Source: a virus
Length of the DNA: 64,000 nucleotides
Strand: one strand, 5' to 3'
IMG/VR virus record: IMGVR_UViG_3300045988_144650
Below the pieces are notes generated by a model. It was not told the DNA's origin. It was given only the letters and a program-made list of their open reading frames with translations, and did not search any database. The first letter of the stretch is position 1, and each line of letters opens with the position of its first letter. Both the position numbers and the translations under genes were made by a program. Positions 27,381 through 45,621 of the stretch are shown piece by piece.

Positions 27381-27453
27381 CGGGTTTCTCCTCTCGTTCG
27401 TATTTGAAAAGAATTCGTAATCCATTATAGATCTCTTTAGTGTTGAAGAGAGA

Positions 27454-27609
27454 TTATAATGCAGAAGAACACACGAAGTGATCTCCGCACGATCCTTTAG
27501 GATCGAAGCAGATCACGAGTGTGAAAAGTAACAAAACCTTACTTCGATTTACAATACGAAGCGACTGCCTCTATGTATGATTGTGTATGGCAGACCATGT
27601 GCATTATAA
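27454..27609 (-). ncRNA. Family-1 structured element, short copy D.
   Basis: Terminal inverted repeats TTATAATGCA and TGCATTATAA flank SL1 (CTGCC/GGCAG) and the conserved SL2 CTTCG-ATTTACAATA-CGAAG. Confidence 0.4.
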
Positions 27610-27707
27610 ATTCTTTTCGGTTGTTTATCGTTCGCAACCTGAATAAAGTGCTTTTGGATCTATAGAGATAAATTCCTGGAAAACCCCGTTTTCCTGGAAT
27701 TTAGCGC

Positions 27708-27815
27708 TATTGATACAAAACATCTTTATTTACAACGGGGTATGGGGTTTACCCCAGATAAGCTTCTCAAACCTTTACTTCGATTTACAATACGAAGCCA
27801 CCCTATGTATCAAAG
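27708..27815 (-). ncRNA. Family-1 structured element, short copy E.
   Basis: a1-like CTTTGATAC and a2-like GTATCAA with the conserved SL2 CTTCG-ATTTACAATA-CGAAG. Confidence 0.35.
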
Positions 27816-27848
27816 AAATGGGTAAATGTTCGTTGCAAACGCAAAATA

Positions 27849-28482: not shown

Positions 28483-28569
28483 TGGTACGGATAGTGGGAC
28501 TTGAACCCACACATCATTGCTGACATTAGCACCTGAAGCTAACGCGTCTGCCAATTCCGCCATATCCGC
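28483..28569 (-). tRNA. tRNA-Leu (anticodon CAG), type II, CCA encoded.
   Basis: Manual fold: acceptor GCGGATA, anticodon loop TTCAGGT, long variable arm, T-arm GTGGG-TTCAAGT-CCCAC, 3' ACCA. Confidence 0.7.
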
Positions 28570-28742
28570 ATATTTCTTTGGTCGGCTTCCCGCTTAGATT
28601 GTCACATCGTCTACTTGGGAGTAAAGGTCTCGTTCGCAAACAACCGTGTATACCCGATTGCTCCGCAGTTTTCAGCGGACATTTTCATTCTCTGTGTGGT
28701 AAGCCGATAATCGCACACATCATCTGGGAGCTACCCAGCCAC

Positions 28743-28833
28743 TGGCGGAGCAGATAGGACTTGAACCTACACACCCTTTCGGGCTACTCACGGTTTAGCA
28801 AACCGCTGCCTTACCAATTAGGCTTACTGCTCC
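28743..28833 (-). tRNA. tRNA-Ser (anticodon GCU), type II.
   Basis: Acceptor GGAGCAG, anticodon loop TTGCTAA, long variable arm, T-loop TTCAAGT, 3' GCCA. Confidence 0.7.
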
Positions 28834-28837
28834 ATAT

Positions 28838-28913
28838 TGGAGCTGGTGGACGGATTCGAACCCCCGACCTACTGATTACAAATCAGTTGCTCTACCGACT
28901 GAGCTACACCAGC
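28838..28913 (-). tRNA. tRNA-Thr (anticodon UGU).
   Basis: Canonical D-arm AGCTCAGTCGGTAGAGC, anticodon loop TTTGTAA, T-arm GGGGG-TTCGAAT-CCGTC, 3' TCCA. Confidence 0.8.
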
Positions 28914-29527
28914 ATCTCTTTATAGGGTTTTTCGCGCTTCTGCAGATTTCCACGCCTTGTCCTTACCGTCTATCCCTATTGCCACATGGGATCACAGACC
29001 CTAAACACTTCTGCTCTATGCCGGTTGTGTTCTGATACCGGAAAACATTCTGGGGACTTTATTTCACCTTGTTGCTCCAGCCCTCAAGGGTAACTCGGCA
29101 AGTGGCTTGCCTATTTGGATTTTGGTGCCATCATCTCAGCCATACACTCCGGCCTAAACCTAAGTTTGCCAGAACCTCACCGATTGCTCCTATGTATGCC
29201 GTCCTCGCCTCTGACTGAAATGATGTGCCGACACCTTCCATACCGTCTCACTTGCAAAATAAAACAAACTACGAACGGGGTGTGGTAAGCACATACCACC
29301 CAAACCTCTGCTTAGTCCCGCCGGTTCTGGTTTACGACATGGTTTGGTGCTCATGCCCTTGAGCTATTAGGCTATTTAACTATCTCTCACCGGCTTGATT
29401 TGCTTTTGTTAAGACGGTGCCAGAGCACGCTGCTCATATCCCGTTATCTTCCGCCCATCGTAGTCGATGACCCAGCCACTATATATCATTTCAAGTGGGC
29501 TTTTCCCATACCGTCTAAAGCGTATGG

Positions 29528-29637
29528 CTGGTGGAGAGGGATGGATTCGAACCACCGAAGCTTAATTGACCACACGGCGCCACAAGTCAAAAAGCGGAGA
29601 TTTACAGTCCCCGACTTTGGCCACTTGTCTACCTCTC
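29528..29637 (-). tRNA. tRNA-Tyr-like (anticodon GUA), atypically long at 110 nt with a ~39-nt variable arm.
   Basis: Acceptor GGAGAGG/CCTCTCC, anticodon stem-loop GGGGA-CTGTAAA-TCTCC, T-arm GGTGG-TTCGAAT-CCATC, 3' ACCA. The variable region GCTTTTTGACTTGTGGCGCCGTGTGGTCAATTAAGCTTC forms an extended hairpin. Confidence 0.55.
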
Positions 29638-29655
29638 CATATTGGTAAACTGGTC

Positions 29656-30468
29656 TTATTCCCAGTTTGTCGTAACACGACCATCTGGATGAATAATAAT
29701 ATTGGAATACCCATCCTGATAATCATTATGTTGCTGTTGCCACATATCTCCGAGTGTTACCCTGGCGTGCTTGCCAGCATAATCAAAAGTTGCATACACA
29801 AAGAAGTCGCCAATACGAAATGTGTGAAGATCAACTTCGTGATCGTTTTGTAATTCATTCCAAATATCTACCGAGTAGTCTTTTCGTTCAAGGCCACTAA
29901 GAAACCGAAAAGAAAAGGCATCTGCATCCATCTTCATGTAATCTTTAATGAATGCCAATGTTGGGGTTTCAACCACTGTTTGGACTGTACACCCAGGAAA
30001 CTTACTTGGATTTGGATGAATAAACTCGTTACAGGACAGATTGATATGTGCCAAACCATTTAATTCTGTGCTGAAACCAGAAGTATTTATTGAGCAAAAG
30101 ACACCGTTGCTGTAACTCTGATATGTTTCAACGATTTTTGCAATGTGTTTTGGATATAGACCGGGTTCTCCGCCAGTGATAGTAAGCCTTCCATTCGGAT
30201 GTTCTTTTAACACACGCTTTAGCGCCTCAACCTGGAGCGGAAAATTATTGTTGCCGGACATTGGGTGCTGCCTTTCCAAGCAAAACGGACAGCTAAACGG
30301 ACATTCCTGTGTGGTAATCAGTTGGATATTGATTCGATAGTAAAGAGGCCGACCAAGTGATGTTTTGATTAACCTGTCTCTTAGCCTATATTGCAGATCA
30401 TTATTCATTTCATTCCTTATTTCGTCGTAAGAACCAATGAACGGAATGAAGTTCAACTTGCTACTCAT
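29656..30468 (-). CDS. Radical SAM enzyme, second copy, small.
   Basis: CPFSCPFC is a Cx3Cx2C cluster. ITGGEPGLYP SAM-binding motif present. Confidence 0.7.
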   Translation of the reverse strand: MSSKLNFIPFIGSYDEIRNEMNNDLQYRLRDRLIKTSLGRPLYYRINIQLITTQECPFSCPFCLERQHPMSGNNNFPLQVEALKRVLKEHPNGRLTITGGEPGLYPKHIAKIVETYQSYSNGVFCSINTSGFSTELNGLAHINLSCNEFIHPNPSKFPGCTVQTVVETPTLAFIKDYMKMDADAFSFRFLSGLERKDYSVDIWNELQNDHEVDLHTFRIGDFFVYATFDYAGKHARVTLGDMWQQQHNDYQDGYSNIIIHPDGRVTTNWE

Positions 30469-30493
30469 CTAAATCAACCTCCTTTGCTGTTAG

Positions 30494-30569
30494 TGGTGGA
30501 GATGGTCGGGATCGAACCGGCGACCTCCTGCTTGCAAGGCAGGCGCTCTCCCAACTGAGCTACATCCCC
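30494..30569 (-). tRNA. tRNA-Ala (anticodon UGC).
   Basis: GGGGATGTAGCTCAGTTGGGAGAGC..., G3:U70 pair, anticodon loop CTTGCAA, T-arm with TTCGATC, 3' ACCA. Confidence 0.8.
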
Positions 30570-31226: not shown

Positions 31227-32720
31227 TTAGTGCTTGTCAGCAATCGCGCCGCCCAGCATACCGGACAGCACGGCCATCAGATCCAGGCCGGTTGCATCCT
31301 TGAAACCATCCTGAACCTGCTTCATGCCGGTGGTAACGGCGCCGGTCAGAGTGGAAGTACCACCCTCGTAGATGGTCATGTTGTCGATACCCTCCATAGG
31401 CTTAGCAACGGCAGCGGCAATCTCAGGCATGGTCTTGACATACTCCATTGCCACATCCAGAACCATCTGCTGCTTAGCAGCGTCGCCGTATTCCTTCATA
31501 GCTTCTGCCTTCTTCAGAATGCCTGCAGCCTCAGCCTCTGCCTTAGCCTGAATGGCCTCGGCTTCAGCACGACCCTTGGCAGCGATACCGGCAGCTTCGT
31601 TTTCCATTGCCACACGAGCAGCTTCGGAACGAGCCTTTTCAGCAGCAGCTCTCTGCTCTGCCTCAAACAGCTCTGCAGCAGCCTGCTTCTGACGCTCGAA
31701 CAGCTCAGCCTCAGAAGACTTCTGAACCTCATACAGCTTTGCATCAGCTTCCTGCTGTGCAGCGTACTTATCGGCCTCAGCCTTCTTCTTGATCTCTGCA
31801 TCCAAAGAACGCTCACGGATAGCAACCTCGCGCTCCTTCAGTTCGATTTCCTTTTCCAGACGAGCCAGGTTGGCTTCGGCTGTCTTGGTTTCGATGGATG
31901 CACGCTGCTCCTGCTCCTGAATTGCATAGGCAGCATCTGCTTCTGCTCGCTTGGCGTCCTCAATCTTCTTCAGCTCAGCCATCTGAATGGCAAGCTCGTT
32001 CTGACGCTTAGCAATCTCCTGATCGGACTTAACCTGAGCCTCGTTGGCAGCCATAGCAGCCTGAGCCTGAGCAATAGCAATCTCCTTCTCTGCCTGAGCC
32101 TTGGAAATTGCGGCGTCCTTGGAAATCTGAACAGTGTTCTCCAGACCGAGGTTGTCGATCACGCCGTTGCGATCCTTGAAGTTCTGAATGTTAAAGGTAG
32201 TCAGCTCCAGACCCATATCGTTCAGGTTGGGAGTAACATTCTCAATGATACGCTCGGCAAAAATCTTCTTGTCACCCTGGATCAGTTCCTTCAGAGTGGT
32301 CTGAGAAATAATCTCACGAATATTACCCTCCAGAACAGGAGTAATGATTTCGCGAATCTGATTGGGATTATAGCCAAGGAATTTAGAGGCTGCGACCTTC
32401 AGCATATCAGGATCTTTAGCGATGGACACATTGGCTACTGCGTCAACCATAATGTTGATAGCATCCTTGGTGGGGATCTCATCGCGAGAAGTGAAGTCAG
32501 ACTGAATGTTTTCCAGAGACATATAGTCGACACGCTGGATGATAGGAATAACCAGTGCGCCCTGACCGATAATTGTTCTTGCACCACGGGGGCCGGTGAT
32601 GACCATTGCCACATTGGGAGGTGCTTTCTTATACATAACCTTGCCAATGAAGATCAGAAGAATGATTGCGACAAGGATGCCGACACCGGCGGTTGCGTAA
32701 GGCAAAATCATTTCGAGCAT
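31227..32720 (-). CDS. Flotillin-like SPFH-domain protein (FloT/YuaG-like).
   Basis: N-terminal transmembrane anchor, an SPFH region, then a long Ala/Glu/Gln/Lys-rich coiled coil (EA repeats) and a C-terminal flotillin tail. Confidence 0.75.
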   Translation of the reverse strand: MLEMILPYATAGVGILVAIILLIFIGKVMYKKAPPNVAMVITGPRGARTIIGQGALVIPIIQRVDYMSLENIQSDFTSRDEIPTKDAINIMVDAVANVSIAKDPDMLKVAASKFLGYNPNQIREIITPVLEGNIREIISQTTLKELIQGDKKIFAERIIENVTPNLNDMGLELTTFNIQNFKDRNGVIDNLGLENTVQISKDAAISKAQAEKEIAIAQAQAAMAANEAQVKSDQEIAKRQNELAIQMAELKKIEDAKRAEADAAYAIQEQEQRASIETKTAEANLARLEKEIELKEREVAIRERSLDAEIKKKAEADKYAAQQEADAKLYEVQKSSEAELFERQKQAAAELFEAEQRAAAEKARSEAARVAMENEAAGIAAKGRAEAEAIQAKAEAEAAGILKKAEAMKEYGDAAKQQMVLDVAMEYVKTMPEIAAAVAKPMEGIDNMTIYEGGTSTLTGAVTTGMKQVQDGFKDATGLDLMAVLSGMLGGAIADKH

Positions 32721-32763
32721 TAAGTTTTCTCCTTTATATTCTTGTGATTGGTGACTACGGATT

Positions 32764-33179: not shown

Positions 33180-33863
33180 CTACACACCTCCGAGCGGGAG
33201 AACCCTACGATAAAGAGCTGTGTGTCTATCATCAATGTCTAAGTCGACATGATAGTGACCAAAATACCAATGCTTAAACCTGCAATTTTCCTCTACAAAC
33301 TGCAGAAAACTGGTGACCGCGTCGTTCTCATACCAACTTGCAATTTTGGCCTGTATGCTTTTGGATGCACAATGCGTAACTATGTAATCAACACACCAGT
33401 TGTGCTTTTCGAGCGTTTCAACAGCGTGTTCGAACTCTGCTTTGCTCGGGATTTCTTCTTCCCACCAAGATATATTTGGCTTTCTCAAATGCTTGTCATG
33501 AGATGATGCCCCGCCCATGCAGAACACCTTAGCTCCATCAATTTCAAACACCTCGCCACGCATCAAATGAAACAAGCTTGGCTGAATTTGGTGAACTGAC
33601 CCGCCATACTGATTTACAATGGGGAACTCTGCGAGCATTCGGTGGTTTTCATGGTTGCCATCCACAAAAAGAGTGGTGAATGATTTTTCTTCGTACCACT
33701 TCTGCCAGTATCGGTCACATTTCGATCCGTCCCAAACACAACCAAAATCCCCGCATACAATTAGGGAATCGTTTTTGCTCATGGACTTTTGTTGAGGGAA
33801 GTTTCTCATTGCAAGCTTATGAATGTCGATATCTCCATGAGTATCGCCAGTGATATAAACCAT
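33180..33863 (-). CDS. Calcineurin-like metallophosphoesterase.
   Basis: MVYITGDTHGD...GDF...GNHE...GHYH motifs. Confidence 0.7.
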   Translation of the reverse strand: MVYITGDTHGDIDIHKLAMRNFPQQKSMSKNDSLIVCGDFGCVWDGSKCDRYWQKWYEEKSFTTLFVDGNHENHRMLAEFPIVNQYGGSVHQIQPSLFHLMRGEVFEIDGAKVFCMGGASSHDKHLRKPNISWWEEEIPSKAEFEHAVETLEKHNWCVDYIVTHCASKSIQAKIASWYENDAVTSFLQFVEENCRFKHWYFGHYHVDLDIDDRHTALYRRVLPLGGV

Positions 33864-33889
33864 CCGTTCACCCCTTTCCTTTTCGTTTC

Positions 33890-34218
33890 ATCTGTAATCT
33901 ACAAGTACACCCGTCTTCTTGAGGAAGCTCTGGAGGGACTCCTCGTCGAGAGCTGAGGCTTCGTGAAGCGTGAGTTCGGGATTTCGCATCGGGTCGGTGA
34001 GCGAGAAAACCCTTGTAGTTACAGGGGTTTTCGAGTGTTTCCGAGTGAGGAAAATTTATTTATTTCCTGACCCTGCGAGCAGTGTCATCTCTTGCGCCGG
34101 GCGAATTCGCTGGAGGCGCCTGCCGCAGCGGCGTGCCCCTGGTATTTCCCCCCGGCCATTCGTAACTCCGATTTACAATACGGAGCATTAACTGAAACAG
34201 TTAATAATGCATTACAGA
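33890..34218 (-). ncRNA. Family-1 structured element, long copy B (about 329 nt, retron-ncRNA-like architecture).
   Basis: Minus-strand a1 ATCTGTAAT immediately followed by G, then the conserved CATTA-SL1-TGC-SL2(CTCCG-TATTGTAAAT-CGGAG)-TTACGAATGG module, a variable GC-rich ~230-nt body, and a2 ATTACAGAT 27 nt upstream of the next gene start. Confidence 0.45.
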
Positions 34219-34233
34219 TGATATTTTCTGGAT

Positions 34234-34788
34234 TTATCTCCAGTGAATTAGATACAAACTGTATTCCTCAGACTCAAGATCCTCGGCGAGTCTGAAGCCG
34301 ATTGCTTCATACTGTGCCCAAATCGCAGACCAGTCGATATAGTCCGTGATTTCGTCTTTGCTGATAAAGTCGAGGATTTCCTTGGTGATACCTGTGTCGA
34401 AAGGAACGCCAAGTTCGGTAGCTATGTAACAGGCGGCGAGTTCTTCGTTACCCATTTTCCAAGTGACCTCGGAAAGATCTTCAAACATGAAGTCATTTTC
34501 TTTGATGCGGCGGACAAATTCTTCGTCTTCAAGTTCTCCATCAACGGCATCCATAATCAGCGCAAGAAGTTCAGCCGTCATACCGGGATTCTCGCTGTTG
34601 ATGTCGTCAATAACTTCATTCAACTCCCAAACATCCATCGTTTGGATACCGGGAATAGACGGCGTACTGTCGATGATGACATACTCGTTTTGGCGATTCA
34701 GTTCAGAGCGAATATTAGATGGGATCGTGACAGTCTTATCCGCGCAACCGTCATCCCAGTCCTGCAGTTCAAGTTCCAGTTTAATCAT
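34234..34788 (-). CDS. Hypothetical acidic protein.
   Basis: 184-aa ORF preceded by AGGTGATGG. Confidence 0.45.
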   Translation of the reverse strand: MIKLELELQDWDDGCADKTVTIPSNIRSELNRQNEYVIIDSTPSIPGIQTMDVWELNEVIDDINSENPGMTAELLALIMDAVDGELEDEEFVRRIKENDFMFEDLSEVTWKMGNEELAACYIATELGVPFDTGITKEILDFISKDEITDYIDWSAIWAQYEAIGFRLAEDLESEEYSLYLIHWR

Positions 34789-34820
34789 TTGCCATCACCT
34801 CTTATTGTTTTGTTTGGTTT

Positions 34821-35157
34821 CTTTGTAATCATTACATATATATCCTGATTCCCTTCAGTGCGATCATCGATGGGATGCCAATCCCAGTTCTGTCGTCATC
34901 TGATGTGATTTGGACTTCTTGCAGTTGGGAAACCACCTAATTCCGAGGTCTTAGTTGGTGTTTTGCACGGAATTATTTATTTAGTCTTGGTTCAACCGCC
35001 GGAGACTGGGTGCCTCTTGAGGTGTTAACGCGTTGACGGCCGGCGGAGCTGCGGGCGTCACCAGTGGTGGGCTATGTGTTTCCTCCCGACCATTCGTTAC
35101 TTTGATTGACAATACAAAGTGCTACTTGCCAAAGACAAACAGCTATGCATTACAAAG
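34821..35157 (-). ncRNA. Family-1 structured element, long copy C (about 337 nt).
   Basis: a1 CTTTGTAAT-G and a2 ATTACAAAG carry compensatory changes relative to copies A and B. SL2 is CTTTG-TATTGTCAAT-CAAAG. The conserved TAACGAATGG block is present. Confidence 0.45.
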
Positions 35158-35166
35158 AAATTTGGT

Positions 35167-35361
35167 TTAGAATATTGCTTGTTCGTACTGTGCTTGGGTT
35201 ATTTCGCCGTTCTTGCAAAGAGCGTCAATCCAGCACGACCACTCAAACTGAACCTTACAGTAGTCGTCCTGACGCGCTCTCAGGTAGGCTTTATAGTCAC
35301 CGCCGAACGCTTCGTCGATGAATCTTCTTCTCAGGGTTTTTCGTCTTTGGCGTCTATACAT
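35167..35361 (-). CDS. Small basic protein.
   Basis: 64-aa ORF (MYRRQRRKTLRRR...). Coding status is uncertain. Confidence 0.3.
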   Translation of the reverse strand: MYRRQRRKTLRRRFIDEAFGGDYKAYLRARQDDYCKVQFEWSCWIDALCKNGEITQAQYEQAIF

Positions 35362-36050
35362 TATCCGTTGTCAACCTCCTCGGCAAAGAAAGTTTCGTTC
35401 ATATATGCCAGAACACGGTCGGCATATCCACTCGTGCCCGGGCTACCAGTGTTATAGCAGGTAAGGGCAGACTCGACTGACCCGTACTTTTCTATCAATT
35501 CGGCAAGCAAATCGCATCCGACTCTGAAGTTTGAAAGAGGATCGGAAAGGTCTGTCACACCAAGCCGCTCCATTCTTTCCTGGTGCCAACGAGGCTGAAC
35601 CTGCATATACCCGATGCTGTTTCCATTGTCGCCATTTACATTCCTGTATGTGGACTCACGGAAAATAACCGCCAAAGCAAGCTCATAAGGGCAGCCTGTT
35701 TCTTCACAAGCTGCCCATACAAGTTCCTGCAATTCATATTCAAGGGAAATATTTTCGTAGTATCGAAATGTCTCTTCCGGTTCCGGTTCTGGGGTGGGCT
35801 CTGAAACTAACATGGTTTCGCGTGGAATATACACCGGTGGAACAACCATCGGTTCAAGTTTTAATGGAATAGTTTCGTATGTATCGCTGATAGCAGGAGT
35901 TGGGATTTCCGGCTCAGCATCTGCAGCCGGATTTGAAAGGCCACATAAAACCACGGTTACGAATGCCAGAAAAAGCAGCATTGCGATGATATGCGGAAAC
36001 CGTCTGTGAGAACGGCGCCGTCTTCGTCTTTTCTGATACAAGGGTAACAC
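35361..36050 (-). CDS. Lytic transglycosylase (SLT domain) with an N-terminal membrane anchor.
   Basis: ELALAVIFRESTYR...GYMQV matches the catalytic E-S and GLMQ-like motifs of the SLT domain. A hydrophobic helix lies near the N-terminus. Confidence 0.75.
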   Translation of the reverse strand: MLPLYQKRRRRRRSHRRFPHIIAMLLFLAFVTVVLCGLSNPAADAEPEIPTPAISDTYETIPLKLEPMVVPPVYIPRETMLVSEPTPEPEPEETFRYYENISLEYELQELVWAACEETGCPYELALAVIFRESTYRNVNGDNGNSIGYMQVQPRWHQERMERLGVTDLSDPLSNFRVGCDLLAELIEKYGSVESALTCYNTGSPGTSGYADRVLAYMNETFFAEEVDNG

Positions 36051-36075
36051 TCCTCTCTTGTGACCGATGCTGAAA

Positions 36076-37221
36076 CTACTGGTTGAGATCCTCGCTCATG
36101 CTTTTCATAACATCGGTGTGGAACTTCTCATTGTTGTACTTGATTACGCTATCTACATACTCTTTTTCGACCATGCTGTAATAGTTGACCAAACCACGCA
36201 GAACCTGTACATCGTGCAGATCCCAATGGCGACCATTCTGCCGGTCGAGAATGTAGTTGCAAATCATTGCCCGCAAGCGCTGTTTGTTCTTATAACCAAT
36301 GGTGATCTCATTATCCTTATTGAGCATCACACCGAGGTTCCAATTACTTCCAGCGCGTGAGCCATAGCGCGTCTTTTCGTCTTTGATCTTAAAAGGAGCA
36401 CCAAACTCTGCGAGGGTAGAATTGATAAAGCCGATGATTTCATCCTTATCAAAACCCTTACGGCTTGAAAAGAGAGAGTCATCGGCATATCTGGTATATA
36501 CATAATGATTTCCATTGAAGTCACGCAGGCAATTGTTGATACGATGGTCAATGGGAATCATCATCAGATTTGTGAGCATAGGGGAAATAGGTGTTCCCTG
36601 CGGGAGACCACCGTTCAGGAAACACAGATCCAACGCTTTTTCCAAAGCATCAAATCCGCGCTGAGATTTTACGATCTCGCTAAATGGAAATACTTTGGAA
36701 AGCATAGACATCAGGAACTTCGGAGTTGTGCTGCCAAAGAAGTCAGAGAAGTCGGTCTTGAGGAACCAATGACTCTCATTCTTCTGATGACGCTTTACCG
36801 CGTCGATGGTAGATCTTCCGGGAACATAAGCAAATGCGCTGGTATGATACAGCGCAAACATCTGGGTTTCAAAAATCGTTTTCAGATTTCTGAGCGCATT
36901 CATCAGCGCTGGCTGCGGCGCATTGATCTCACGCAAGCCACCGGACTTCTTAGGGATATAGAACTTATCGTAGAGGTCGCTGCGCTTTGCCTCGTAAAGT
37001 TTAGCGTTCTGCTTGCAAAACTCTTCCAAGGTTACGACCATTGCATCAATATCAAAACGCTCAAGGAACTTGGGGTTCAGAACTTTGGAAAAGTAAGTTC
37101 TTGTGTTGGTCTCATTGGGGTTGACCATGTTGGCGAGATTGACATTCCCCGAAATAATTTCATCAAATGTGATCTGATGGAAAATCGGAGACTGCATCAG
37201 CGTAATGTAAGGCACTTCCAA
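36076..37221 (-). CDS. Reverse transcriptase, retron-type.
   Basis: RT motifs: IPKKSGGLREINAP (1/2), AYVPGRS, FLKTDFSDFFGS (A), GLPQGTPISPMLTNL (B'), YTRYADD (C), and a downstream KT....NLGVML resembling the retron VTG region. Start follows AAAGGAGG. Confidence 0.75.
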   Translation of the reverse strand: MEVPYITLMQSPIFHQITFDEIISGNVNLANMVNPNETNTRTYFSKVLNPKFLERFDIDAMVVTLEEFCKQNAKLYEAKRSDLYDKFYIPKKSGGLREINAPQPALMNALRNLKTIFETQMFALYHTSAFAYVPGRSTIDAVKRHQKNESHWFLKTDFSDFFGSTTPKFLMSMLSKVFPFSEIVKSQRGFDALEKALDLCFLNGGLPQGTPISPMLTNLMMIPIDHRINNCLRDFNGNHYVYTRYADDSLFSSRKGFDKDEIIGFINSTLAEFGAPFKIKDEKTRYGSRAGSNWNLGVMLNKDNEITIGYKNKQRLRAMICNYILDRQNGRHWDLHDVQVLRGLVNYYSMVEKEYVDSVIKYNNEKFHTDVMKSMSEDLNQ

Positions 37222-37242
37222 ACCTCCTTTTTCATTATTCGT

Positions 37243-37569
37243 ATCTGTAATCTACATACTCTGTGATGAGATGACCAGATCAGCTCAGGATACTCGTAGA
37301 TCTTCAGATTCCTGGATTCGGACATCTGATGGCTATGAAGTAACGGTGAACTCCTGGTTGTGCAGGTAATGAGTCTTGGATTTCCTGTGGTTCCTTAAAG
37401 TTTTCTTCAGGAGACACTGATGAAACTCTTGACTTTTGCTGTATAACCTGCGATGCTGCGACCGAGTCGCTGCAGCGTTTCTGGGTAGCCGGGTATTTCC
37501 CGTCCACCATTCGTAACTTTGATTTACAATACAAAGCACTTCCTATTCGGGAAGTAATGCATTACAGAT
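37243..37569 (-). ncRNA. Family-1 structured element, long copy A (about 327 nt), directly 5' of the RT gene. Candidate retron msr-msd ncRNA.
   Basis: a1 ATCTGTAAT-G at the 5' end (minus strand). SL1 is CTTCC-CGAATA-GGAAG and SL2 is CTTTG-TATTGTAAAT-CAAAG, followed by TTACGAATGG. a2 ATTACAGAT lies 22 nt upstream of the RT start. Confidence 0.5.
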
Positions 37570-37574
37570 CTCGT

Positions 37575-38456
37575 TTACATCTTTTTCAGAATCGCAAAGA
37601 ACTCCTCTTCATCAATCTCGATGATCTCCTGTGGAGCACTGAGAACCTCATAGTACCCATCGCCGTCAGGCTCATCTGAGATTAGGATTTCAGGATTGAG
37701 TTTCAAAGCTGGGCGCACCCCCACACAATCGTCGCAAGCACAGGCACTGCCGACATCGCCATCGCGATTAACGCAACGCACATTGTACGAGCGGCCAGAG
37801 TTCGGGGAGCGCAGGTAGTAGTACCACTCCTCGTCTTCATATTCGGGCTTGTCATTATTGGGAGTATTTGCGTACAGTTCGGGAGAGAACAGGCAGGCTC
37901 TGTTTGCACCATCCGCAAACAAATCCCAAACCTCACCCTCCTGAATACGGTTCTCAGTTCCACCGCCCACATTGGTTCTGGAGGGCATGAAAACCTTAGC
38001 ATAAATGGTTTCATACTTTTCGCCACCAGTAGGAATATCCTTGGTAGGCAGCGCCGTTTTGATCTCGGACTCCTCAATGGCTTCGACTTCCCACTCCTCA
38101 AAGTAGTGCAGGAAACCAGGCTTGTGAACATAGCCGTAGCGACCATTGTACATCAGGCGATCCTCGGGAGCCGTGTCGTGTTCGTGTGTCGGGCGGAACC
38201 AGTCTGTCCCCTCAGCATTCAGAAACTGATGACTGTTACTTAAGGAGTAGCGGTTATTACCGTAACTCCTGCGGTATTCGTCGGGGTTATCGGGCTCTTT
38301 GGCATCGAACGCACACTGATCTTCCATAAACTCGGTCAAGATCGTGCCGTCGCGATGAGCCTTTACCCAGCAAATCTTATGCGGCATCTCACCGCTGACG
38401 CTATAAGCGCCGAATTTCAGTTTTGCCCCGATGGGCAGGTCTGCGATAGTAGGCAT
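37575..38456 (-). CDS. Hypothetical protein.
   Basis: 293-aa ORF with a Cys cluster CACDDC near the C-terminus. Confidence 0.45.
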   Translation of the reverse strand: MPTIADLPIGAKLKFGAYSVSGEMPHKICWVKAHRDGTILTEFMEDQCAFDAKEPDNPDEYRRSYGNNRYSLSNSHQFLNAEGTDWFRPTHEHDTAPEDRLMYNGRYGYVHKPGFLHYFEEWEVEAIEESEIKTALPTKDIPTGGEKYETIYAKVFMPSRTNVGGGTENRIQEGEVWDLFADGANRACLFSPELYANTPNNDKPEYEDEEWYYYLRSPNSGRSYNVRCVNRDGDVGSACACDDCVGVRPALKLNPEILISDEPDGDGYYEVLSAPQEIIEIDEEEFFAILKKM

Positions 38457-38480: not shown

Positions 38481-39158
38481 TTAGAACGCATCAACCGTGT
38501 GACCAAAAGCGTCGATCAAGATCAGCTTACGCAGATCGCCGCCCTTGACAAAATTGATGAAGTTGGAGACTCCGCAAGCAACAATCATTCTGACTGTCGG
38601 AACCACGGACAGAGTGACATTGCAGGCAGAAACAGGGGTCTCTTCCTTAGCCTCCTCGTGAGAGAATGCCATGCTCTTGATGAAATCCTCAACCATCTTC
38701 TGGTTGTCCCAAGCCGCAGCATAGTGCTGGGCATCAGTCAGTCTCATACGGAAGTCAAACATTCCCTTGACATACTGATTTTCCTTGCACTTGGTGGCAA
38801 TCTCACGGCGGAGGTCGATATTATCCACGCAGAGGAAAACATAACCGGAAAGCCGCTGACCTGTCCAACCATCGGGAACCAACTTAAGCTCCTCCGCGCA
38901 ATCGGGATTGATCTCACACAGGTAATCAGCAAGCGCCTCGATCTTCAGCTTGCCGATGTCGGTCTGACGGAACATCTGGTTTGCGATGTTGTGCGCCTCA
39001 ACCTTGTCGAAATCGTAAAGAGTGATTTTGGTGATACCGAACCGAACCAGATTTTCTGCGACGGTCGATCCGATTGCACCGCAGCCGATGATATGCACAC
39101 GAGAAGTCAGCATATCAGGCTTGAAAAAGTCATAAGACTTGGACAAATCCATAGCCAT
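38481..39158 (-). CDS. E1-like ThiF/MoeB-family adenylyltransferase.
   Basis: Rossmann loop IIGCGAIGSTVAENL followed by ITLYDFDKVEAHNIANQ (compare GxGxxG ... D.D.V..SNLNRQ). Confidence 0.65.
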   Translation of the reverse strand: MAMDLSKSYDFFKPDMLTSRVHIIGCGAIGSTVAENLVRFGITKITLYDFDKVEAHNIANQMFRQTDIGKLKIEALADYLCEINPDCAEELKLVPDGWTGQRLSGYVFLCVDNIDLRREIATKCKENQYVKGMFDFRMRLTDAQHYAAAWDNQKMVEDFIKSMAFSHEEAKEETPVSACNVTLSVVPTVRMIVACGVSNFINFVKGGDLRKLILIDAFGHTVDAF

Positions 39159-39179
39159 TTGGTCAGTCTCCCTTCTTAT

Positions 39180-40082
39180 TTATTTCTGAAAGCGACCGTA
39201 ATCGTAGATGCCGTACTGATCGTCGTCATCGTCATAGCCGCCGTAGTTATATCCTTTGCCGGAACTTCCGATATCGGGCTTATCCTTCTTGCCGCCCTTG
39301 GGCTTGCTCTTGGTCTTATCGGAACCGGTCTGAGCCTGGAAACCCGTCTGCTGCTTGCCATACTGGTAACCACTCTGACCGTACTGGCCTCCGCCGTACT
39401 GATAGGTCTTGGTCTTGACCAGTTCCTTGGCATCCTTGATAAAGGCGTTCAGGTCACAACCCTCATCGCCGATATACAGGTCAACATCTGCGGTTTCGTA
39501 GAGCGTATTGTTTGCCATATCGAAAATCTTGATGTTGCGCTCGAACTTCTTGTTCCAAATCATAAAGATGTAGAACATATCGTCGTCGATCTGGCTCAGG
39601 ATCTTTTCCTGATGGGTGGTATCCACACCGGAGGGGGTCGTGCTGAAATCTACATGAGAATGACCCTGCATACGGATGTTGTTAAACACCTCATCATCGT
39701 GGGTGTAGAGCCAAGTCTGATACGCATCCTGGTCGGTGTTAACGGTAGAACCGGTAACAACCTGGGGATAAACCAGAATGTCAGTGATGTAGAACTTATT
39801 CTTTTCCTTTTCGTCGCGATATGCGACACCGTGCCAAGCGACCTCGCTGGTAAAGTTCTGAACCAACATGGTCATCTTGGCAAATGCGACGGCGGAGAAC
39901 ACAACAGAAGCCCTGTCCTCACCATCCCATTTGAAGTTCTTGGTGTAATTGAGCTTACCGTCGAACATCTTCATCTTTTTGACATTCTCGATAAACTCCT
40001 GCTGAATCGCAGCAATCAGCTCGTCGGTGAGCTTGATCGGCTTACTCATGTGCTTCCTCCTTTTTCTTTTGCTTTTCCGCAT
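39180..40082 (-). CDS. JAB/MPN (JAMM) metalloprotease-domain protein with a Gly/Tyr/Gln-rich disordered tail.
   Basis: GHSHVDFSTTPSGVD matches HxHx7Sx2D with an upstream Glu. The C-terminal 90 aa are low complexity (YQYGGGQYGQSGYQYG...). Confidence 0.6.
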   Translation of the reverse strand: MRKSKRKRRKHMSKPIKLTDELIAAIQQEFIENVKKMKMFDGKLNYTKNFKWDGEDRASVVFSAVAFAKMTMLVQNFTSEVAWHGVAYRDEKEKNKFYITDILVYPQVVTGSTVNTDQDAYQTWLYTHDDEVFNNIRMQGHSHVDFSTTPSGVDTTHQEKILSQIDDDMFYIFMIWNKKFERNIKIFDMANNTLYETADVDLYIGDEGCDLNAFIKDAKELVKTKTYQYGGGQYGQSGYQYGKQQTGFQAQTGSDKTKSKPKGGKKDKPDIGSSGKGYNYGGYDDDDDQYGIYDYGRFQK

Positions 40083-41559
40083 CCTGTGCCTCCAACCACT
40101 TCACTGCATCCAGAGGCGTTGCGGTAGAGCCGTCAGGCATCTGGATAATCTTACCCACATCGTTTGCACAAATCTTCTGCATAAAGAAAGTGCCAGTGTT
40201 GGCTTCGGTCAAATTGATATTGGTTGCGGAACCACAGCAGTTGCTCACTGCCGCGACATAGTCGCGGTTCATCATTGCTTTTCGGATATAGGTCTGATTA
40301 TTACCCAAGCAAGCATAATACTGGATATGCTGGTTGGGGGTATGATCCACAAGAATTTCAGGCGGGAACGAGTAGTTCTTCAGACCGTAATAACCGCCAT
40401 CAGAGAAGTTCAGTTTGTATGCCGCGCAGACACGAAGCTTCATAATTTCATCTCTGAAAATCGCAATCATCAAGCGCTTGATACGCTCGTCGGTCATTTC
40501 CTTGTTCTGGTAACGCTGACCGGTCTGATAGTGACGATAGAAGAAGCTACGGCCAAACTGCTCAATAGCGGACTCGAACAGCTCAGGGTCGAAACTGGAA
40601 ATCGTAGTGGTTACGATAAACTCAATCGTACCACCACTGACACGAACAAGATTGATGGACTTATTGCAGAGCATATACTCCATAAACTCGGTATCTTCGC
40701 CATCATCACCGTCGCCGCGCATTTTCGCAATCAAACCCAGTTCCTGTGTGGTCAGATCAGCAATCCGCACATACAGGTCGCGGAACTGCTGTTCCAACTG
40801 TTCAATGCGATTACGGTCGTTGGCAATCTGCTGCTGAACATTCCGAAGTTTGTCCTTCTCAAAGGCATTCTCAAAACCACGGAGCATATTGCGAACCGCC
40901 TGCGTTCTGAAATCAAACTTCTTAGCGAATTGTTCAATCAGCTCGGTATAATCAGGAGCATAACGCTTGGTGAGGGATCGGATCAGTGCAACCTCTTCGT
41001 CATTGAAGGGGTTTTCACGCACATACCAAGGCATATAGCGGGGAATCAGAGACTGCAACAGATGCCATCTCTTGATATCCAGCTTTTCAACGAAAATCAG
41101 AACGGACTTACGCTCCTCGCTGATAAACACACGGGCATGAACCTTGCCGTTCTGTTCCAGAAACTTAGATACATCGGGCAGAGCGATAAAAGCATTGCCC
41201 AGTGCGGCATTTACACCGCCATTGTCGATAGCAGCGAAGCTTGCGGTGTTGCCCTCTTCGTCACCATCAAAAGTGTGAATATGCAGAGCACCGGGAACTG
41301 CAGACATAATATCGGTATTTCTCAGGAATGCACGGACGCAATCCTTAGCAGTTGCTCCGTCAATTTCATACTTACCATAACGAGAGGCAGTAACGCGAAG
41401 CAAAATGGACTCTTCTTTCGGAACCCTTTTGTACATAAGGGCTCGCAAGGTCGCCAGAAAAGAGGTATCGCCTCTAAAGTCCTGCCCATTGATGTTTTGG
41501 AACAGACCATCGGCGACCTGTTTGGTGAGAGTCAGACCAGAAAGAGTTTTGTTAAACAT
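40042..41559 (-). CDS. Hypothetical protein, 505 aa.
   Basis: Large ORF with a central coiled-coil-like region, co-directional with and upstream of the JAB and E1-like genes. Confidence 0.45.
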   Translation of the reverse strand: MFNKTLSGLTLTKQVADGLFQNINGQDFRGDTSFLATLRALMYKRVPKEESILLRVTASRYGKYEIDGATAKDCVRAFLRNTDIMSAVPGALHIHTFDGDEEGNTASFAAIDNGGVNAALGNAFIALPDVSKFLEQNGKVHARVFISEERKSVLIFVEKLDIKRWHLLQSLIPRYMPWYVRENPFNDEEVALIRSLTKRYAPDYTELIEQFAKKFDFRTQAVRNMLRGFENAFEKDKLRNVQQQIANDRNRIEQLEQQFRDLYVRIADLTTQELGLIAKMRGDGDDGEDTEFMEYMLCNKSINLVRVSGGTIEFIVTTTISSFDPELFESAIEQFGRSFFYRHYQTGQRYQNKEMTDERIKRLMIAIFRDEIMKLRVCAAYKLNFSDGGYYGLKNYSFPPEILVDHTPNQHIQYYACLGNNQTYIRKAMMNRDYVAAVSNCCGSATNINLTEANTGTFFMQKICANDVGKIIQMPDGSTATPLDAVKWLEAQDAEKQKKKEEAHE

Positions 41560-41629
41560 AGCCTGCTCCTTTACTCAATGATTAAGGGCACCCACCGTAT
41601 TTCAGATGGGTGCCCCAGCCGATATGTAA

Positions 41630-41872
41630 TTAGGCGTTGTCAGCCTTAACGACATTGAGCAGGAAGCACTTGTCGTGACCCTCAGTGCCGTCGTAGCCGA
41701 AGTCGGCAAAAGTCTTGTTCAGGTCGCCGGGGCCGAGAGTGGAACCATCCAGAGTGGTCATGCCGGAGGTGTAGTCGATGCCGGCCTGCTCCATAGCAGC
41801 ACGCAGGGTGGTATCAGGGGTATAGTTCTCAGAGGAACGCTTCAGGTTGTTACCAATAGTGACACGGATCAT
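41630..41872 (-). CDS. Small protein, 80 aa.
   Basis: ORF MIRVTIGNN... Its size and position make it a ubiquitin-like (beta-grasp) candidate. Confidence 0.35.
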   Translation of the reverse strand: MIRVTIGNNLKRSSENYTPDTTLRAAMEQAGIDYTSGMTTLDGSTLGPGDLNKTFADFGYDGTEGHDKCFLLNVVKADNA

Positions 41873-41968
41873 AATGATTTCTCCTTTTTATTCATCAGAT
41901 TTTGTTTGTGAAACTTGAATTTGGTTAGGAGCTGGGCGGTTTGCCCGCCCAACCCCAAGCTGCTTTAC

Positions 41969-42370
41969 TTAGCAGGCAACGGTGATGCACTCGCGAACCG
42001 CAGCCTTCTCAGCAGCGACAGCGTTGACGGCATCCTCGAACTGAGCCTCGACCTGGTTCAGCATGGTGATAGCCTTACCGATCTTCTCGGCAGCGTAGTC
42101 GACCGCATTGGCGGTGCCGGCAGGGATGGGCATGGTGATGGAAGCCAGCTTCTGATCGTCGTGAGTGACGGAAGCGAACACCGCACCATTACCGTTGATG
42201 ACACCAGTGCTGCCGGAAGCGACACGGAAAACCTCGGACTTGTTGCCGTCCTCGTCGCGCTCGTACAGACGCAGTGCCTTGGGGCGATACTTCTCCAGAT
42301 CCTTGATTGCCTCCAGAGTCTTGCTGGAAGTGATGACGATGGAGTCGCCAGCGATAGTGATTTTTGCCAT
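41969..42370 (-). CDS. Hypothetical protein, 133 aa.
   Basis: ORF MAKITIAGDSIVITS..., strong RBS context. Confidence 0.4.
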   Translation of the reverse strand: MAKITIAGDSIVITSSKTLEAIKDLEKYRPKALRLYERDEDGNKSEVFRVASGSTGVINGNGAVFASVTHDDQKLASITMPIPAGTANAVDYAAEKIGKAITMLNQVEAQFEDAVNAVAAEKAAVRECITVAC

Positions 42371-44345: not shown

Positions 44346-44426
44346 ACCAGGCGGGAAACCGCCTGACCGTAGAAAGGAAAGGAAGCCGAAAGCCAAAGCA
44401 TTCAGCAAAAGTCGCCATGTGGCGAT

Positions 44427-44514
44427 GGCGGAGAGGGTGGGATTCGAACCCACGGAGGTTTTACCCTCGCCGGTTTTCAAGACCGGTTCCTTAAACCAGC
44501 TCGAACACCTCTCC
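44427..44514 (-). tRNA. tRNA-Ser (anticodon UGA), type II.
   Basis: Acceptor GGAGAGG, anticodon stem-loop CCGGT-CTTGAAA-ACCGG, long variable arm, T-arm GTGGG-TTCGAAT-CCCAC, 3' GCCA. Confidence 0.7.
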
Positions 44515-45321: not shown

Positions 45322-45549
45322 GAAAACCCCTCTTGAGAACAGGTAAGCAGCCGATTCACAAGAGGGGAATTTCCCCCGCGTTCAGGTGTTAATGCGGGAT
45401 TGTTTAATCAATCATAAACTTTAATCATTTGGATAACACCTGCCCAAAGCAAGAGGTCAGCGCTAACCCCTCACTCTCCGCATTTCGGGAATCTTTTCGC
45501 ATACGGTACGCCGCGTCAAGGCTCGTCGCGGAAAACCCTGCCAGGGATG

Positions 45550-45621
45550 TGACATGAGCAAGACTCGAACTTGCGACACGCCGGTCATATCCGGTTGCTC
45601 TACCGACTGAGCTATCATGCC
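45550..45621 (-). tRNA. tRNA-like element or pseudo-tRNA, with no encoded CCA and a noncanonical anticodon arm.
   Basis: Canonical D-arm TAGCTCAGTCGGTAGAGC and T-arm GCAAG-TTCGAGT-CTTGC with acceptor GGCATGA/TCATGTC. The anticodon region CCGG-ATATGA-CCGG gives only a 4-bp stem and a 6-nt loop. Confidence 0.4.

Follow-up and report, generated by a model that had tools for sequence, protein, structure and literature searches.

A retron-type reverse transcriptase accompanied by several retron-like non-coding RNAs in a lineage of large gut phages

In the current view, a retron is a tripartite system of bacterial abortive infection that combines one non-coding RNA (ncRNA), one reverse transcriptase (RT) and one effector. 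In the type II-A retron Ec86 (Retron-Eco1), a single ncRNA of about 170 nt is joined by an RT with canonical VTG and NAxxH motifs and by an adjacent effector gene, and the distribution is patchy. The RTs of the type I-A retrons Ec78 (Eco7) and Ec83 (Eco4) also have a single ncRNA each and pair with PtuA/PtuB-type ATPase and HNH effectors. The published hallmarks of retron ncRNAs are terminal inverted repeats, 'two opposing G residues' and one to three msr hairpins, and the G of VTG and the H of NAxxH are the most conserved residues of those RT motifs (PMC7736814). Retron-type RTs also occur in Staphylococcus jumbo phages: MarsHill gp206 and its relatives have no recognisable effector, and a long non-coding region lies upstream of the RT (bioRxiv 10.1101/2020.12.14.422802). 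Here we describe a phage locus, within the 64,000 nucleotides of viral DNA that we analysed (the window), in which a retron-type RT is accompanied by a family of structured non-coding elements. We found no description of this RT/ncRNA family in the literature, leaving aside a preprint that mentions retrons and ncRNA mining (10.64898/2026.09.22.753630).

The RT gene is an uninterrupted open reading frame on the minus strand at 36076–37221; the plus-strand translation of the same interval is riddled with stops. The protein is 381 residues long if read from TTG 37221, the length given in an earlier note on this DNA, and 379 residues long from the in-frame GTG 37215 (MPYIT...). The GTG is the likelier start: homologues of 379 residues match it, and the TTG lies 1 nt from the AGGAGG ribosome-binding site. 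Every RT motif that the earlier note had quoted is located in this frame (KKSGGLREI, FLKTDFSDFFGS, LPQGTPISP, YTRYADD and KTRYGSRAGSNWNLGVML), and YADD, LPQGTPxSP and KxDxxxFFGS are invariant across the 55 family members. The suggested likeness of the region after YADD to the retron VTG region stands in part: the conserved G is kept in 55/55 members, but the triplet reads N-L-G and is non-canonical (N in 46/55, L in 53/55). The NAxxH position aligns as D-A-V-K-R-H, where Ec83 has D-N-A-K-I-H; across the family, the H of this region X is kept in 55/55 members, and A and V take the places of N and A. Canonical VTG (RT7/region Y) and NAxxH (region X) are thus absent, and the most conserved G and H are retained. 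The protein terminates after the thumb, and a fused domain, a maturase domain and an endonuclease domain are all absent, in agreement with the claim that it lacks the accessory domains of group II intron enzymes.

The RT is a retron-type enzyme: whether compared by profile, sequence or fold, it matches retron RTs best, rather than those of group II introns, diversity-generating retroelements (DGRs), DRT or Abi systems. It matches Pfam RVT_1 with E=1.3e-19, and retron RT models occupy PADLOC ranks 1–25 (RT_II-A, E=1.2e-48). The best NCBIfam model is retron_St85_RT (184.7 bits, E=2.2e-54), which is the top family although its curated cut-off of 235 bits is not reached; the NCBIfam Drt2 model gives 45 bits. 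The nearest solved sequences in the PDB are those of retrons Ec83 (E=2.4e-22), Ec78 and Ec67. Foldseek ranks 1–13 are likewise all retron RTs (Ec78/Ec83, E ~1e-13), with GsI-IIC, DRT and DGR RTs further down the list and the DGR RT at rank 25 or lower. Profile searches, PDB sequences and folds therefore agree on the retron affinity that the earlier note had proposed, and the profiles gave no classification as a group II intron, DGR or Abi-type RT devoid of such affinity.

Five non-coding elements lie on the RT strand in the window, three of about 330 nt and two of about 213 nt, and a core 12-mer of the family occurs six times against 0.3 expected. E1 (37243–37569, minus strand, 327 nt; 73.9 bits with model R1) is a retron msr–msd-like ncRNA that ends 21 nt ahead of the annotated RT start and is thus contiguous with the RT on the same strand. 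Its 5′ arm (37569–37561) is followed by the candidate branching G (37560) and by hairpins 1 and 2 (~37555–37516), and the opposing G (37252) precedes the 3′ arm (37251–37243). E2 (34821–35157, minus strand, 337 nt; 70.3 bits) has the arms CTTTGTAAT (35157–35149) and ATTACAAAG (34829–34821) with Gs at 35148 and 34830, and its arm carries a compensatory C-G to T-A change relative to E1 and E3. E3 (33890–34219, minus strand, 330 nt; 81 bits) has arms at 34219–34211 and 33898–33890 and Gs at 34210 and 33899. The short elements sit 6–10 kb from the RT. E4 (27629–27841, minus strand, 213 nt; R1 28.4 bits, E=4.6e-4) has the arms, as read from the sequence, CGTTTGCAAC (27841–27832) and GTTGCGAACG (27638–27629), with Gs at 27831 and 27639. 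E5 (27406–27618, minus strand, 213 nt) is degenerate and a probable member of the family: R1 finds only its hairpin 2 (18.4 bits, E=0.047), which is identical to that of E4, and inverted repeat I18 coincides with the element, whose imperfect 16-nt arms (27618–27603 and 27421–27406) adjoin a G at 27602 and an opposing G at 27422.

The elements share an architecture composed of a covarying closing stem of 9–16 bp, two opposing Gs, two covarying hairpins, a conserved junction and a hypervariable C-rich core. Two invariant Gs, one immediately following the 5′ arm and the other immediately preceding the 3′ arm, are brought face to face by the closing stem, and the two hairpins come after the first of these Gs. 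Covariation in E1 was assessed in alignments A2 and A3. Across the terminal stem and hairpin 2, 98.1% of alignment cells pair, versus 26–40% when the partners are slid, and both sides change in 15/17 pairs; in the terminal inverted repeats, all nine pairs are 100% paired and eight of the nine show a compensatory change. RNAalifold independently recovers hairpins 1 and 2, with 12/14 pairs compensatory. Pair 41–63 is G-U in 18 of the 22 sequences, which identifies the RT-sense strand as the folding strand. The minimum-free-energy folds of E1, E2 and E3 each close the terminal stem (z=-4.3 for E1 and z=-2.5 for E3). Of 137 non-redundant R1 matches, 87% have a G/G-flanked stem of 9 bp or more, compared with 0.8% of shuffles; a G after the 5′ arm together with xG before the 3′ arm occurs in 153 of 175 matches, and the junction has an A at +2 in 100/100. 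This architecture is maintained at RT identities of 41–47% despite different arm sequences. Hairpin 2 is the same across copies within one phage and different between phages (the L010-type hairpin 2 is CGCCAAAGGC), a pattern of concerted evolution (0.80 versus 0.63). An ~85-nt imperfect hairpin occupies element positions 212–296 of E1; constrained folds of 144 elements were heterogeneous, and single-sequence folds fail to demonstrate a universal long msd hairpin. The elements thus combine pairing inverted repeats, opposing Gs and two msr hairpins, to which E1 adds contiguity with the RT, features by which retron ncRNAs are recognised.

The cores of the elements behave differently from their ends. 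Between E1 and its counterpart in the related locus L071, positions 1–116 are 98% identical and the 3′ part about 93%, versus about 50% in the core. Core identity is 77% at 95% RT DNA identity and falls to the random baseline at 72% RT DNA identity. We ruled out the A-rich motif AAATAAATAA as a defining feature, as only 19/106 elements contain it. The sequence AGGCGCCT is enriched (27/106 elements) and lies inside a GC-rich hairpin in E3, the one element checked.

The E1–RT–E2–E3 unit is conserved in more than 100 related phage contigs, and the R1 matches (175 + 51) all lie on the RT strand and cluster in this order. The upstream family of cognate-looking ncRNAs postulated in the earlier note therefore consists of structured RNAs with retron architecture that are tied to the RT well beyond this window. 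In most related loci an E1 orthologue precedes the RT, and in most relatives E2 begins right after the RT stop codon and is followed in tandem by E3; E4 orthologues of 214–217 nt occupy the same relative place in L003–L006. Among loci seeded with ThiF, the RT is downstream of ThiF in 44/45, and all 44 testable relatives carry it, so the RT is a fixed gene of the lineage. Its divergence parallels that of ThiF. At E <= 1e-30 the RT family comprises 445 cluster representatives, and the RT module is a permanent part of a widespread lineage of large gut phages of about 95–150 kb. Their hosts are probably Clostridia; a search for hosts among genome contigs returned only MAG bins of contradictory taxonomy and no isolate, and the locus DNA matched the phage collection only at tRNAs. 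A link between the RT and a replication origin was rejected, since the GC-skew turning point lies at 47–50 kb, away from the RT.

We consider it likely that this locus is a retron-derived module, fixed in a gut-phage lineage, in which one RT makes branched RT-DNAs from several cognate RNAs. The module would consist of the RT with E1 upstream and E2 and E3 downstream, together with the two shorter distant copies in this phage, all presumably transcribed on the RT strand within a densely packed gene block. A single RT would recognise the hairpins carried by every copy, prime from the 2′-OH of the 5′ G and begin copying at the nucleotide 5′ of the opposing G, moving back into the C-rich hypervariable core. 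The products would be several different branched RNA–DNA molecules, whose G/T-rich DNA parts may extend to about 200 nt. Where a Dbr1/CWF19L1-like phosphoesterase is present, it may free the DNA by cutting the 2′-5′ bond.

The candidate for this last step is a 227-residue metallophosphoesterase encoded directly after E3 (33180–33863, minus strand), whose fold comes closest to those of CWF19L1 and the lariat-debranching enzyme Dbr1. On these fold matches it is possibly a 2′-5′ debranching enzyme. It is present in 26/78 loci, a frequency that led us to reject it as a universal partner and to treat it as a candidate optional accessory enzyme. Downstream of the RT lies a gene with an SLT domain (35361–36050; Pfam E=9.9e-11) and an N-terminal hydrophobic segment, in line with its earlier description as a membrane-anchored transglycosylase. 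It is an incidental neighbour, found beside the RT only in the window and its closest relative, and we rejected it as an effector because it is not conserved. A 184-residue acidic protein follows the RT in 6/78 loci. Upstream, a block of g133, an 80-residue protein, g505, a JAB-like gene and a ThiF/E1-like gene (38481–42370, minus strand) is syntenic in all diverse loci and is treated here as context only; ThiF and the JAB-like gene are found upstream of the RT in 79/84 distinct RT loci and g505 in 71/84. Of the E1-like/JAB pair reported earlier at a few kilobases from the RT, the ThiF/E1-like member is secure (38481–39158; Pfam 93.6 bits versus a cut-off of 28.1), but the 300-residue JAB-like neighbour has no match in Pfam, PHROGs, PADLOC or NCBIfam and shows only an HxHx7Sx2D-like motif, GHSHVDFSTTPSGVD, read by eye.

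These neighbours bear on a rival reading: the phage would carry an ordinary defence retron as cargo, serving lysogenic conversion or superinfection exclusion, and the effector would be unrecognised or unlinked (the SLT protein, the acidic protein, the phosphoesterase or the ThiF/JAB-like block). Classical retrons such as Ec86 do occur in prophages, this phage has two integrase-like genes, the best profile of the RT is the St85/Ec86 family, and the ThiF/JAB-like block lies upstream in 79/84 loci. Against this, searches of the neighbours with Pfam, PHROGs, PADLOC and NCBIfam found no effector, and the only PADLOC defence model of any kind to match them was the generic E1 fold of ThiF, with no retron effector among the matches. 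The downstream gene is not conserved, the SLT, acidic and phosphoesterase candidates are sparse, and the RT carries no fused domain. Defence cargo is usually patchy, whereas this RT is universal among the testable relatives and diverges in step with ThiF, and none of the 13 retron types described so far has three to five ncRNAs for one RT. We therefore regard this explanation as unlikely.

The lack of an effector also recalls the single-gene DRT systems and raises the question of whether the RT uses the element RNAs with another chemistry, in the manner of class 2 DRT systems (DRT2, DRT9): synthesis would be protein-primed, start de novo or proceed by template jumping, with the closed RNAs acting as scaffolds and templates. 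The elements are long and have A/C-rich cores, VTG and NAxxH are non-canonical, and the closing stem joins the start and end of the template in a way that could permit repeated copying. We find this reading quite improbable, as DRT2, DRT3 and DRT9 match the RT far more weakly than retron RTs do, and the invariant opposing Gs and conserved junction are specifically retron-like. Reading frames in the cores have a mean z of about 0.7, with 15/107 fully open and none kept consistently open, and a gene-creating cDNA of the DRT2 type is therefore unsupported.

A cis-acting role for the elements, as intergenic structures that govern RNA processing, translation or stability for the downstream genes and have no connection to reverse transcription, appears very improbable; the RT would then act on something else. 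Such a role would suit their placement, as every element occupies an intergenic gap and ends 5–45 nt ahead of the ribosome-binding site of the next gene, and would suit the distance of E4 and E5 from the RT. Promoters and terminators are not enriched relative to shuffles, and we saw no separate promoter signal. However, in ~1.5 Mb of related phage DNA the R1 matches occur almost exclusively beside the RT and on its strand, and E2 and E3 usually stand in tandem with no gene in between, so they are not gene leaders. The opposing-G geometry and conserved junction have no obvious reason in a processing site, and hairpin 2 co-varies with the phage, and hence the RT, lineage. Finally, identity as a group II intron RT or a DGR is effectively refuted: the similarity is of a weak, general RT kind seen also in the lower fold ranks, group_II_RT_mat scores 85.6 bits, far under its cut-off of 300, the protein ends after the thumb without maturase or endonuclease domains, Rfam scans of the window at gathering thresholds and of 33800–37700 at E <= 10 gave only tRNAs and chance matches and no intron RNA, and no second core copy able to form a template/variable repeat pair was found in the window, 70 loci and the phage collection.

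If the locus is a retron-derived module serving several templates, as we favour, its three to five RNA copies and missing toxin partner argue that it probably has a role other than toxin–antitoxin defence. The products are probably not the antitoxin of a tripartite abortive-infection retron and probably act either in the phage's own cycle or in phage–host or phage–phage conflict, where they could serve as decoys or sponges; we hold both views with low certainty, and they follow from the absence of a partner toxin, the turnover of the cores at no less than the neutral rate and the vertical inheritance of the RT. Extending this, we propose tentatively, as a possibility somewhat short of an even bet, a vertically inherited multi-template retron outside toxin–antitoxin defence, in which three to five RNAs would give rise to fast-evolving branched RT-DNAs, released in some phages by a Dbr1/CWF19L1-like enzyme, and acting either offensively, as decoys or sponges that counter the nucleic-acid-sensing immunity of the host, or within the phage's own cycle. 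If true, this would be the first retron-type system that serves a virus instead of opposing one. Should RT-DNA be made, phages would be using retron chemistry for their own ends, which opens the question of what virus-made msDNA does, and the module, as a natural precedent for multiplexed RT-DNA from one RT, would be of relevance to genome editing with retrons. The cores, long and tolerant of sequence change, point to a scaffold able to take arbitrary inserts of about 100–200 nt, and a Dbr1-like enzyme beside the templates would be the first enzyme dedicated to debranching msDNA.

Among known systems, DRT2 and DRT9 offer a possible functional analogy, with an RT, a structured ncRNA, no separate toxin and a cDNA that is itself active; unlike the phage module, they belong to other RT families, have another ncRNA architecture and are host defences rather than fixed phage genes. 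MarsHill gp206-type RTs are among the tblastn matches and are 27–32% identical over part of the protein only; gp206 itself has 501 residues and a different N-terminal domain, and neither a defined ncRNA nor a multi-copy ncRNA architecture has been reported for it. Ec78 and Ec83 supply the closest solved RT sequences and folds, and genes like their PtuA/PtuB-type partners were not found here. Ec86, whose family with St85 provides the best NCBIfam and PADLOC profiles for the phage RT, resembles the module in several ways. Its ncRNA sits immediately upstream of the RT in the same orientation, its branching G is followed by two hairpins, and a G borders each arm of its terminal inverted repeats on the inner side, an arrangement of arms and Gs that we verified on 48 E. 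coli genomes and that the phage elements reproduce. Ec86 also occurs in a prophage context, between P2-type portal/terminase and replication genes, so that a phage-borne retron is not in itself as unusual as the earlier note supposed; what is unusual is that there are several ncRNAs, that the effector is missing and that the module is fixed throughout the lineage. In contrast to Ec86, the phage module has three to five ncRNAs of 213–337 nt with hypervariable C-rich cores and no conserved effector, and its RT, which has NLG and DAVKRH, does not reach the family cut-off and is a fixed phage gene. The module therefore differs from known retrons in having several ncRNAs for one RT, in lacking an effector and in being a fixed gene of a phage lineage, and it keeps their RNA geometry and RT fold.

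The retron-type reverse transcriptase (RT) occupies an uninterrupted minus-strand reading frame at 36076-37221, encoding 381 residues from a TTG placed 1 nt past an AGGAGG ribosome-binding site, and plus-strand translation of the same interval contains many stops. An in-frame GTG at 37215 (MPYIT..., 379 residues) is the likelier start, because homologues share this length and N terminus. The RT motifs quoted in an earlier note on this DNA all lie in the minus-strand frame, and the retron affinity claimed there is borne out by profile, sequence and fold searches. Beyond a Pfam match to RVT_1, the best 25 PADLOC models are all retron RTs (top model RT_II-A, 1.2e-48, near full-length coverage), and the top NCBIfam model is retron_St85_RT (2.2e-54), at 184.7 bits against a curated cut-off of 235. 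By sequence, the nearest solved proteins are the retron RTs Ec83, Ec78, Ec67, Kva2 and Ec86. With an AlphaFold model (pLDDT 80.8) as the Foldseek query, the best 13 matches are retron RTs, and group II, G2L4, DRT9, DRT2, DGR and Abi enzymes rank lower. The clade comprises 445 representatives of 50%-identity clusters (E <= 1e-30); among deposited phage genomes, the only close relative is on one faecal contig (43% identical). YADD, LPQGTPxSP and KxDxxxFFGS are invariant in 55 distinct family members. The retron signatures are altered, VTG to NLG and NAxxH to DAVKRH; the G of VTG and H of NAxxH, the most conserved signature residues (Mestre et al., PMC7736814), are likewise invariant in these members. 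The RT is a retron-clade enzyme under purifying selection. Some members (P0122, P0129, P0131, P0133 and others) have 440-500 residues and match in two stretches, with an insertion of ~75 residues that follows the N-terminal region or else lies around residue 265.

The window is phage DNA, encoding a large terminase, portal protein, exonuclease and integrase-like recombinases. A temperate lifestyle is possible, as two of its genes encode integrase-like tyrosine recombinases (57758-58798, plus; 3601-4554, minus). The RT unit lies directly downstream of one block in all diverse loci. In the window, this block (38481-42370, minus) encodes proteins of 133, 80 and 505 residues, a 300-residue JAB-like protein and a 225-residue ThiF/E1-like protein; in some loci a DUF6273 protein follows. 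The five genes precede the RT in 71-79 of 84 distinct loci, and four of them have no match in Pfam, PHROGs, PADLOC or NCBIfam. An E1-like/JAB pair had been proposed here; the E1-like member stands, and its neighbour, with no profile match, is JAB-like by an HxHx7Sx2D motif read by eye. The DUF6273 gene (37575-38456, minus), between ThiF and the first RNA element, matches a PHROG annotated as Hoc-like head decoration (3.7e-50) and is found upstream in only 30 of the 84 loci. A search seeded with ThiF only returned 45 loci, 44 of which carry the RT 0.3-1.9 kb downstream (the 45th is truncated), and RT identity drops in parallel with ThiF identity. This carriage and parallel divergence indicate that the RT is a fixed, vertically inherited gene of the phage lineage; the genes downstream of the RT unit vary among loci.

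Matches in genome collections are all in gut metagenome-assembled genome (MAG) bins of inconsistent, mostly Clostridia-type taxonomy, on contigs of 95-135 kb, which suggests mis-binned phage genomes with a clostridial host. Loci L118-L145 (genome contigs) are binned under Bacteroides, Alistipes, Prevotella, Clostridia, Betaproteobacteria and 'archaeon', most likely also through mis-binning, and three of the matches, whose contigs measure 196-359 kb, may represent integrated prophages or larger relatives.

Also in the long gene block oriented with the RT are genes for RtcB, a CCA-adding enzyme and an Erf-like annealing protein, along with several tRNA genes. Genes resembling a tRNA-repair set occur on this strand (14519-16886, 25492-26700, 28483-30569 and 44426-44514): those for the RtcB ligase and the CCA-adding enzyme, another nucleotidyltransferase gene and five genes for tRNAs (Leu, Ser, Thr, Ala, Ser). 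They suggest that the phage counteracts host anticodon nucleases. A 107-nt Rfam tRNA match at 29532-29638 (38 bits), uncalled by ARAGORN, possibly contains an intron, and ARAGORN reports a 'tRNA-???' with a two-base anticodon at 45549-45621. The Erf-like single-strand annealing protein (1139-1855, minus) places a single-stranded DNA recombinase in a phage that may make such DNA by reverse transcription, which may be coincidence; such genes are common in phages. A Band_7/flotillin-like gene of 497 codons (31227-32720, minus) is overlapped by an equally long antisense frame (31230-32723, plus), which we rejected as a second gene and attribute to Ala/Glu/Lys-rich repetitive coding sequence.

Repeat finding recovered a common core at five intergenic sites, all on the RT strand, confirming the element family that had been noted upstream of the RT. 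Comparison of the RT-upstream region in 70 IMG/VR loci (RTs 47-83% identical) revealed a common plan: a 9-12 bp arm, an invariant G, two hairpins and a GTAACRAnTKG motif, then ~200 nt of unalignable sequence, (T/C)AG, the complementary arm and the RT ribosome-binding site. The arms vary jointly (ATCTGTAAT/ATTACAGAT, AACTGTAAC/GTTACAGTT, ATCTGCAAT/ATTGCAGAT, ATAGCGAC/GTCGCTAT). Across 22 aligned elements, pairing reaches 98.1% in the terminal stem and hairpin 2, compared with 26-40% when partners are slid, and 15 of 17 pairs have changes on both sides. RNAalifold, given the 5' module alone, recovered the two hairpins, in which 12 of 14 pairs are compensatory; one hairpin pair is G-U in 18 of the 22 sequences, which identifies the RT-sense strand as the folding strand. 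The predicted folds of the three long window copies, E1 (37243-37569), E2 (34821-35157) and E3 (33890-34219), all minus, each close the terminal stem. Because the stem boundaries had been picked by searching for pairing, we ran an independent control with a covariance model built from the 5' module only, which found 137 non-redundant copies. In 87% of these, the downstream sequence contains a complement of at least 9 bp with G on both flanks, compared with 0.8% when that sequence is shuffled. Both junctions are conserved, the 5' as YAAY-G-N-A-T-W-W (A in 100 of 100) and the 3' as ATGTA-G-RTTR.

Model matches lie on the RT strand in 175 of 175 cases in RT-seeded loci and 51 of 51 in ThiF-seeded loci. 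Most follow one arrangement, with an element ~330 nt upstream of the RT, another directly past its stop codon and the next ~280 nt on, in tandem. The window departs from this pattern, with an SLT gene and a 64-codon frame between the RT and E2, and a gene for a strongly acidic 184-residue protein (34234-34788, minus) between E2 and E3. No family matches this protein, and among 78 distinct loci only the 6 from the closest relatives have a homologue after the RT; that it mimics DNA or counters restriction would be a guess. Two short copies, E4 (27629-27841) and E5 (27406-27618), both minus, lie at 27.4-27.8 kb, and E4 has orthologues in L003-L006. At RT identities of only 41-47%, elements still close on themselves with opposing G's, through other arm sequences (32 of 44 loci, compared with 27% of shuffles, under looser criteria). 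The multiple cognate-looking ncRNAs of the earlier note hold up as covarying closed RNAs with opposing G's, on the same strand and mostly at fixed positions beside the RT, to which they are tied physically and evolutionarily.

The element interiors evolve rapidly. L071 is the closest relative, with 95% identity in the RT protein and ~82% in locus DNA; there, the first 116 nt of E1 are 98% identical, the next ~85 nt ~50% and the last ~120 nt ~93%, and E2 and E3 are alignable at their ends only. Phage pairs with 95% RT DNA identity retain 96% identity in 5' modules, 89% in 3' ends and 77% in cores (67% in E1 cores); at 72% RT identity, cores fall to 51%, against a random baseline of 48%. Core sequences have no match within the window, the loci or the phage collection, and no reading frame stays open across them. 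Compared with the same genome strand, they are enriched in C (30% versus 21%) and depleted in T (19% versus 25%), and this bias, together with the turnover, suggests that core composition and length are constrained and sequence is not. The palindrome AGGCGCCT occurs in 27 of 106 non-redundant cores (~1 expected), among them W_E3 (window 34120-34090), L001, L008 and L032; in E3, the sole element checked, it lies inside a GC-rich hairpin after the 5' module.

These features point to a probable mechanism in which the RT would bind the hairpins common to all elements, prime from the 2'-OH of the 5' G and start copying at the base 5' of the opposing G, proceeding into the core. The products would be several branched RT-DNAs, sometimes debranched by a 227-residue metallophosphoesterase encoded directly after E3 (33180-33863, minus). 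Its sole Foldseek matches at E < 1e-3 are one and the same spliceosomal chain; CWF19L1 is present in 8RO1 (PMC11958768). A fold linked to 2'-5' branch hydrolysis, encoded beside the templates, independently fits a product with a 2'-5' branch, but we treat this role as a lead only: the match leads by a narrow margin in score, the active site has the standard GDxHG motif and the gene is optional. Since no toxin accompanies the RT, its inheritance is fixed and the cores evolve fast, we tentatively propose that the products serve the phage, either within its own cycle or in conflict with rival phages or the host.

A conventional defence retron whose effector escaped recognition is an unlikely alternative: RT neighbours match no retron effector or other defence model, save for the generic E1 fold of ThiF, and defence cargo is typically patchy, whereas this RT is fixed. 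Priming by non-retron chemistry, which the altered retron signatures would suit, is improbable. That the elements are purely cis-acting RNA structures is very improbable. The copies within a phage differ little in hairpin 2 (identity 0.80 within genomes versus 0.63 between), and arms are copy-specific and orthologous across phages, as expected if one RT recognises every copy and each keeps its own identity. A group II intron or DGR element can be dismissed, the NCBIfam group II model scoring 85.6 bits and, like Drt2 and Drt3a, falling well behind retron_St85_RT.

Retron ncRNAs are characterized by terminal inverted repeats, 'two opposing G residues', 1-3 msr hairpins and a long msd stem-loop (Mestre et al., PMC7736814). 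The elements have all of these RNA hallmarks except the long msd hairpin, which could not be established. The Ec86 ncRNA, checked against E. coli genomes, is 100% identical in 48 of them, between annotated retron St85 family effector and RT genes. It reads TGCGCACCCTTA-G...GAC-G-TAAGGGTGCGCA, the same arm-G...G-arm geometry as in the window. Phage portal, terminase and replication genes flank the Ec86 locus, so carriage of a retron by a prophage has precedent. What is unusual is a lineage-fixed RT with several ncRNAs and no recognised effector. In the literature searched, this RT family is not described, nor are retrons that naturally have several ncRNAs or retron-type RTs that are fixed in one lineage of phages. 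The nearest report concerns Staphylococcus jumbo phages with a retron-like RT and an undefined upstream non-coding region (bioRxiv 10.1101/2020.12.14.422802). Each of the 13 described retron types is defined by an effector, and our module departs from retrons in its RT score against the curated cut-off, its VTG/NAxxH signatures and its lack of a recognised effector. Judged from sequence, the module would work like a retron, and it has features absent from any described retron.
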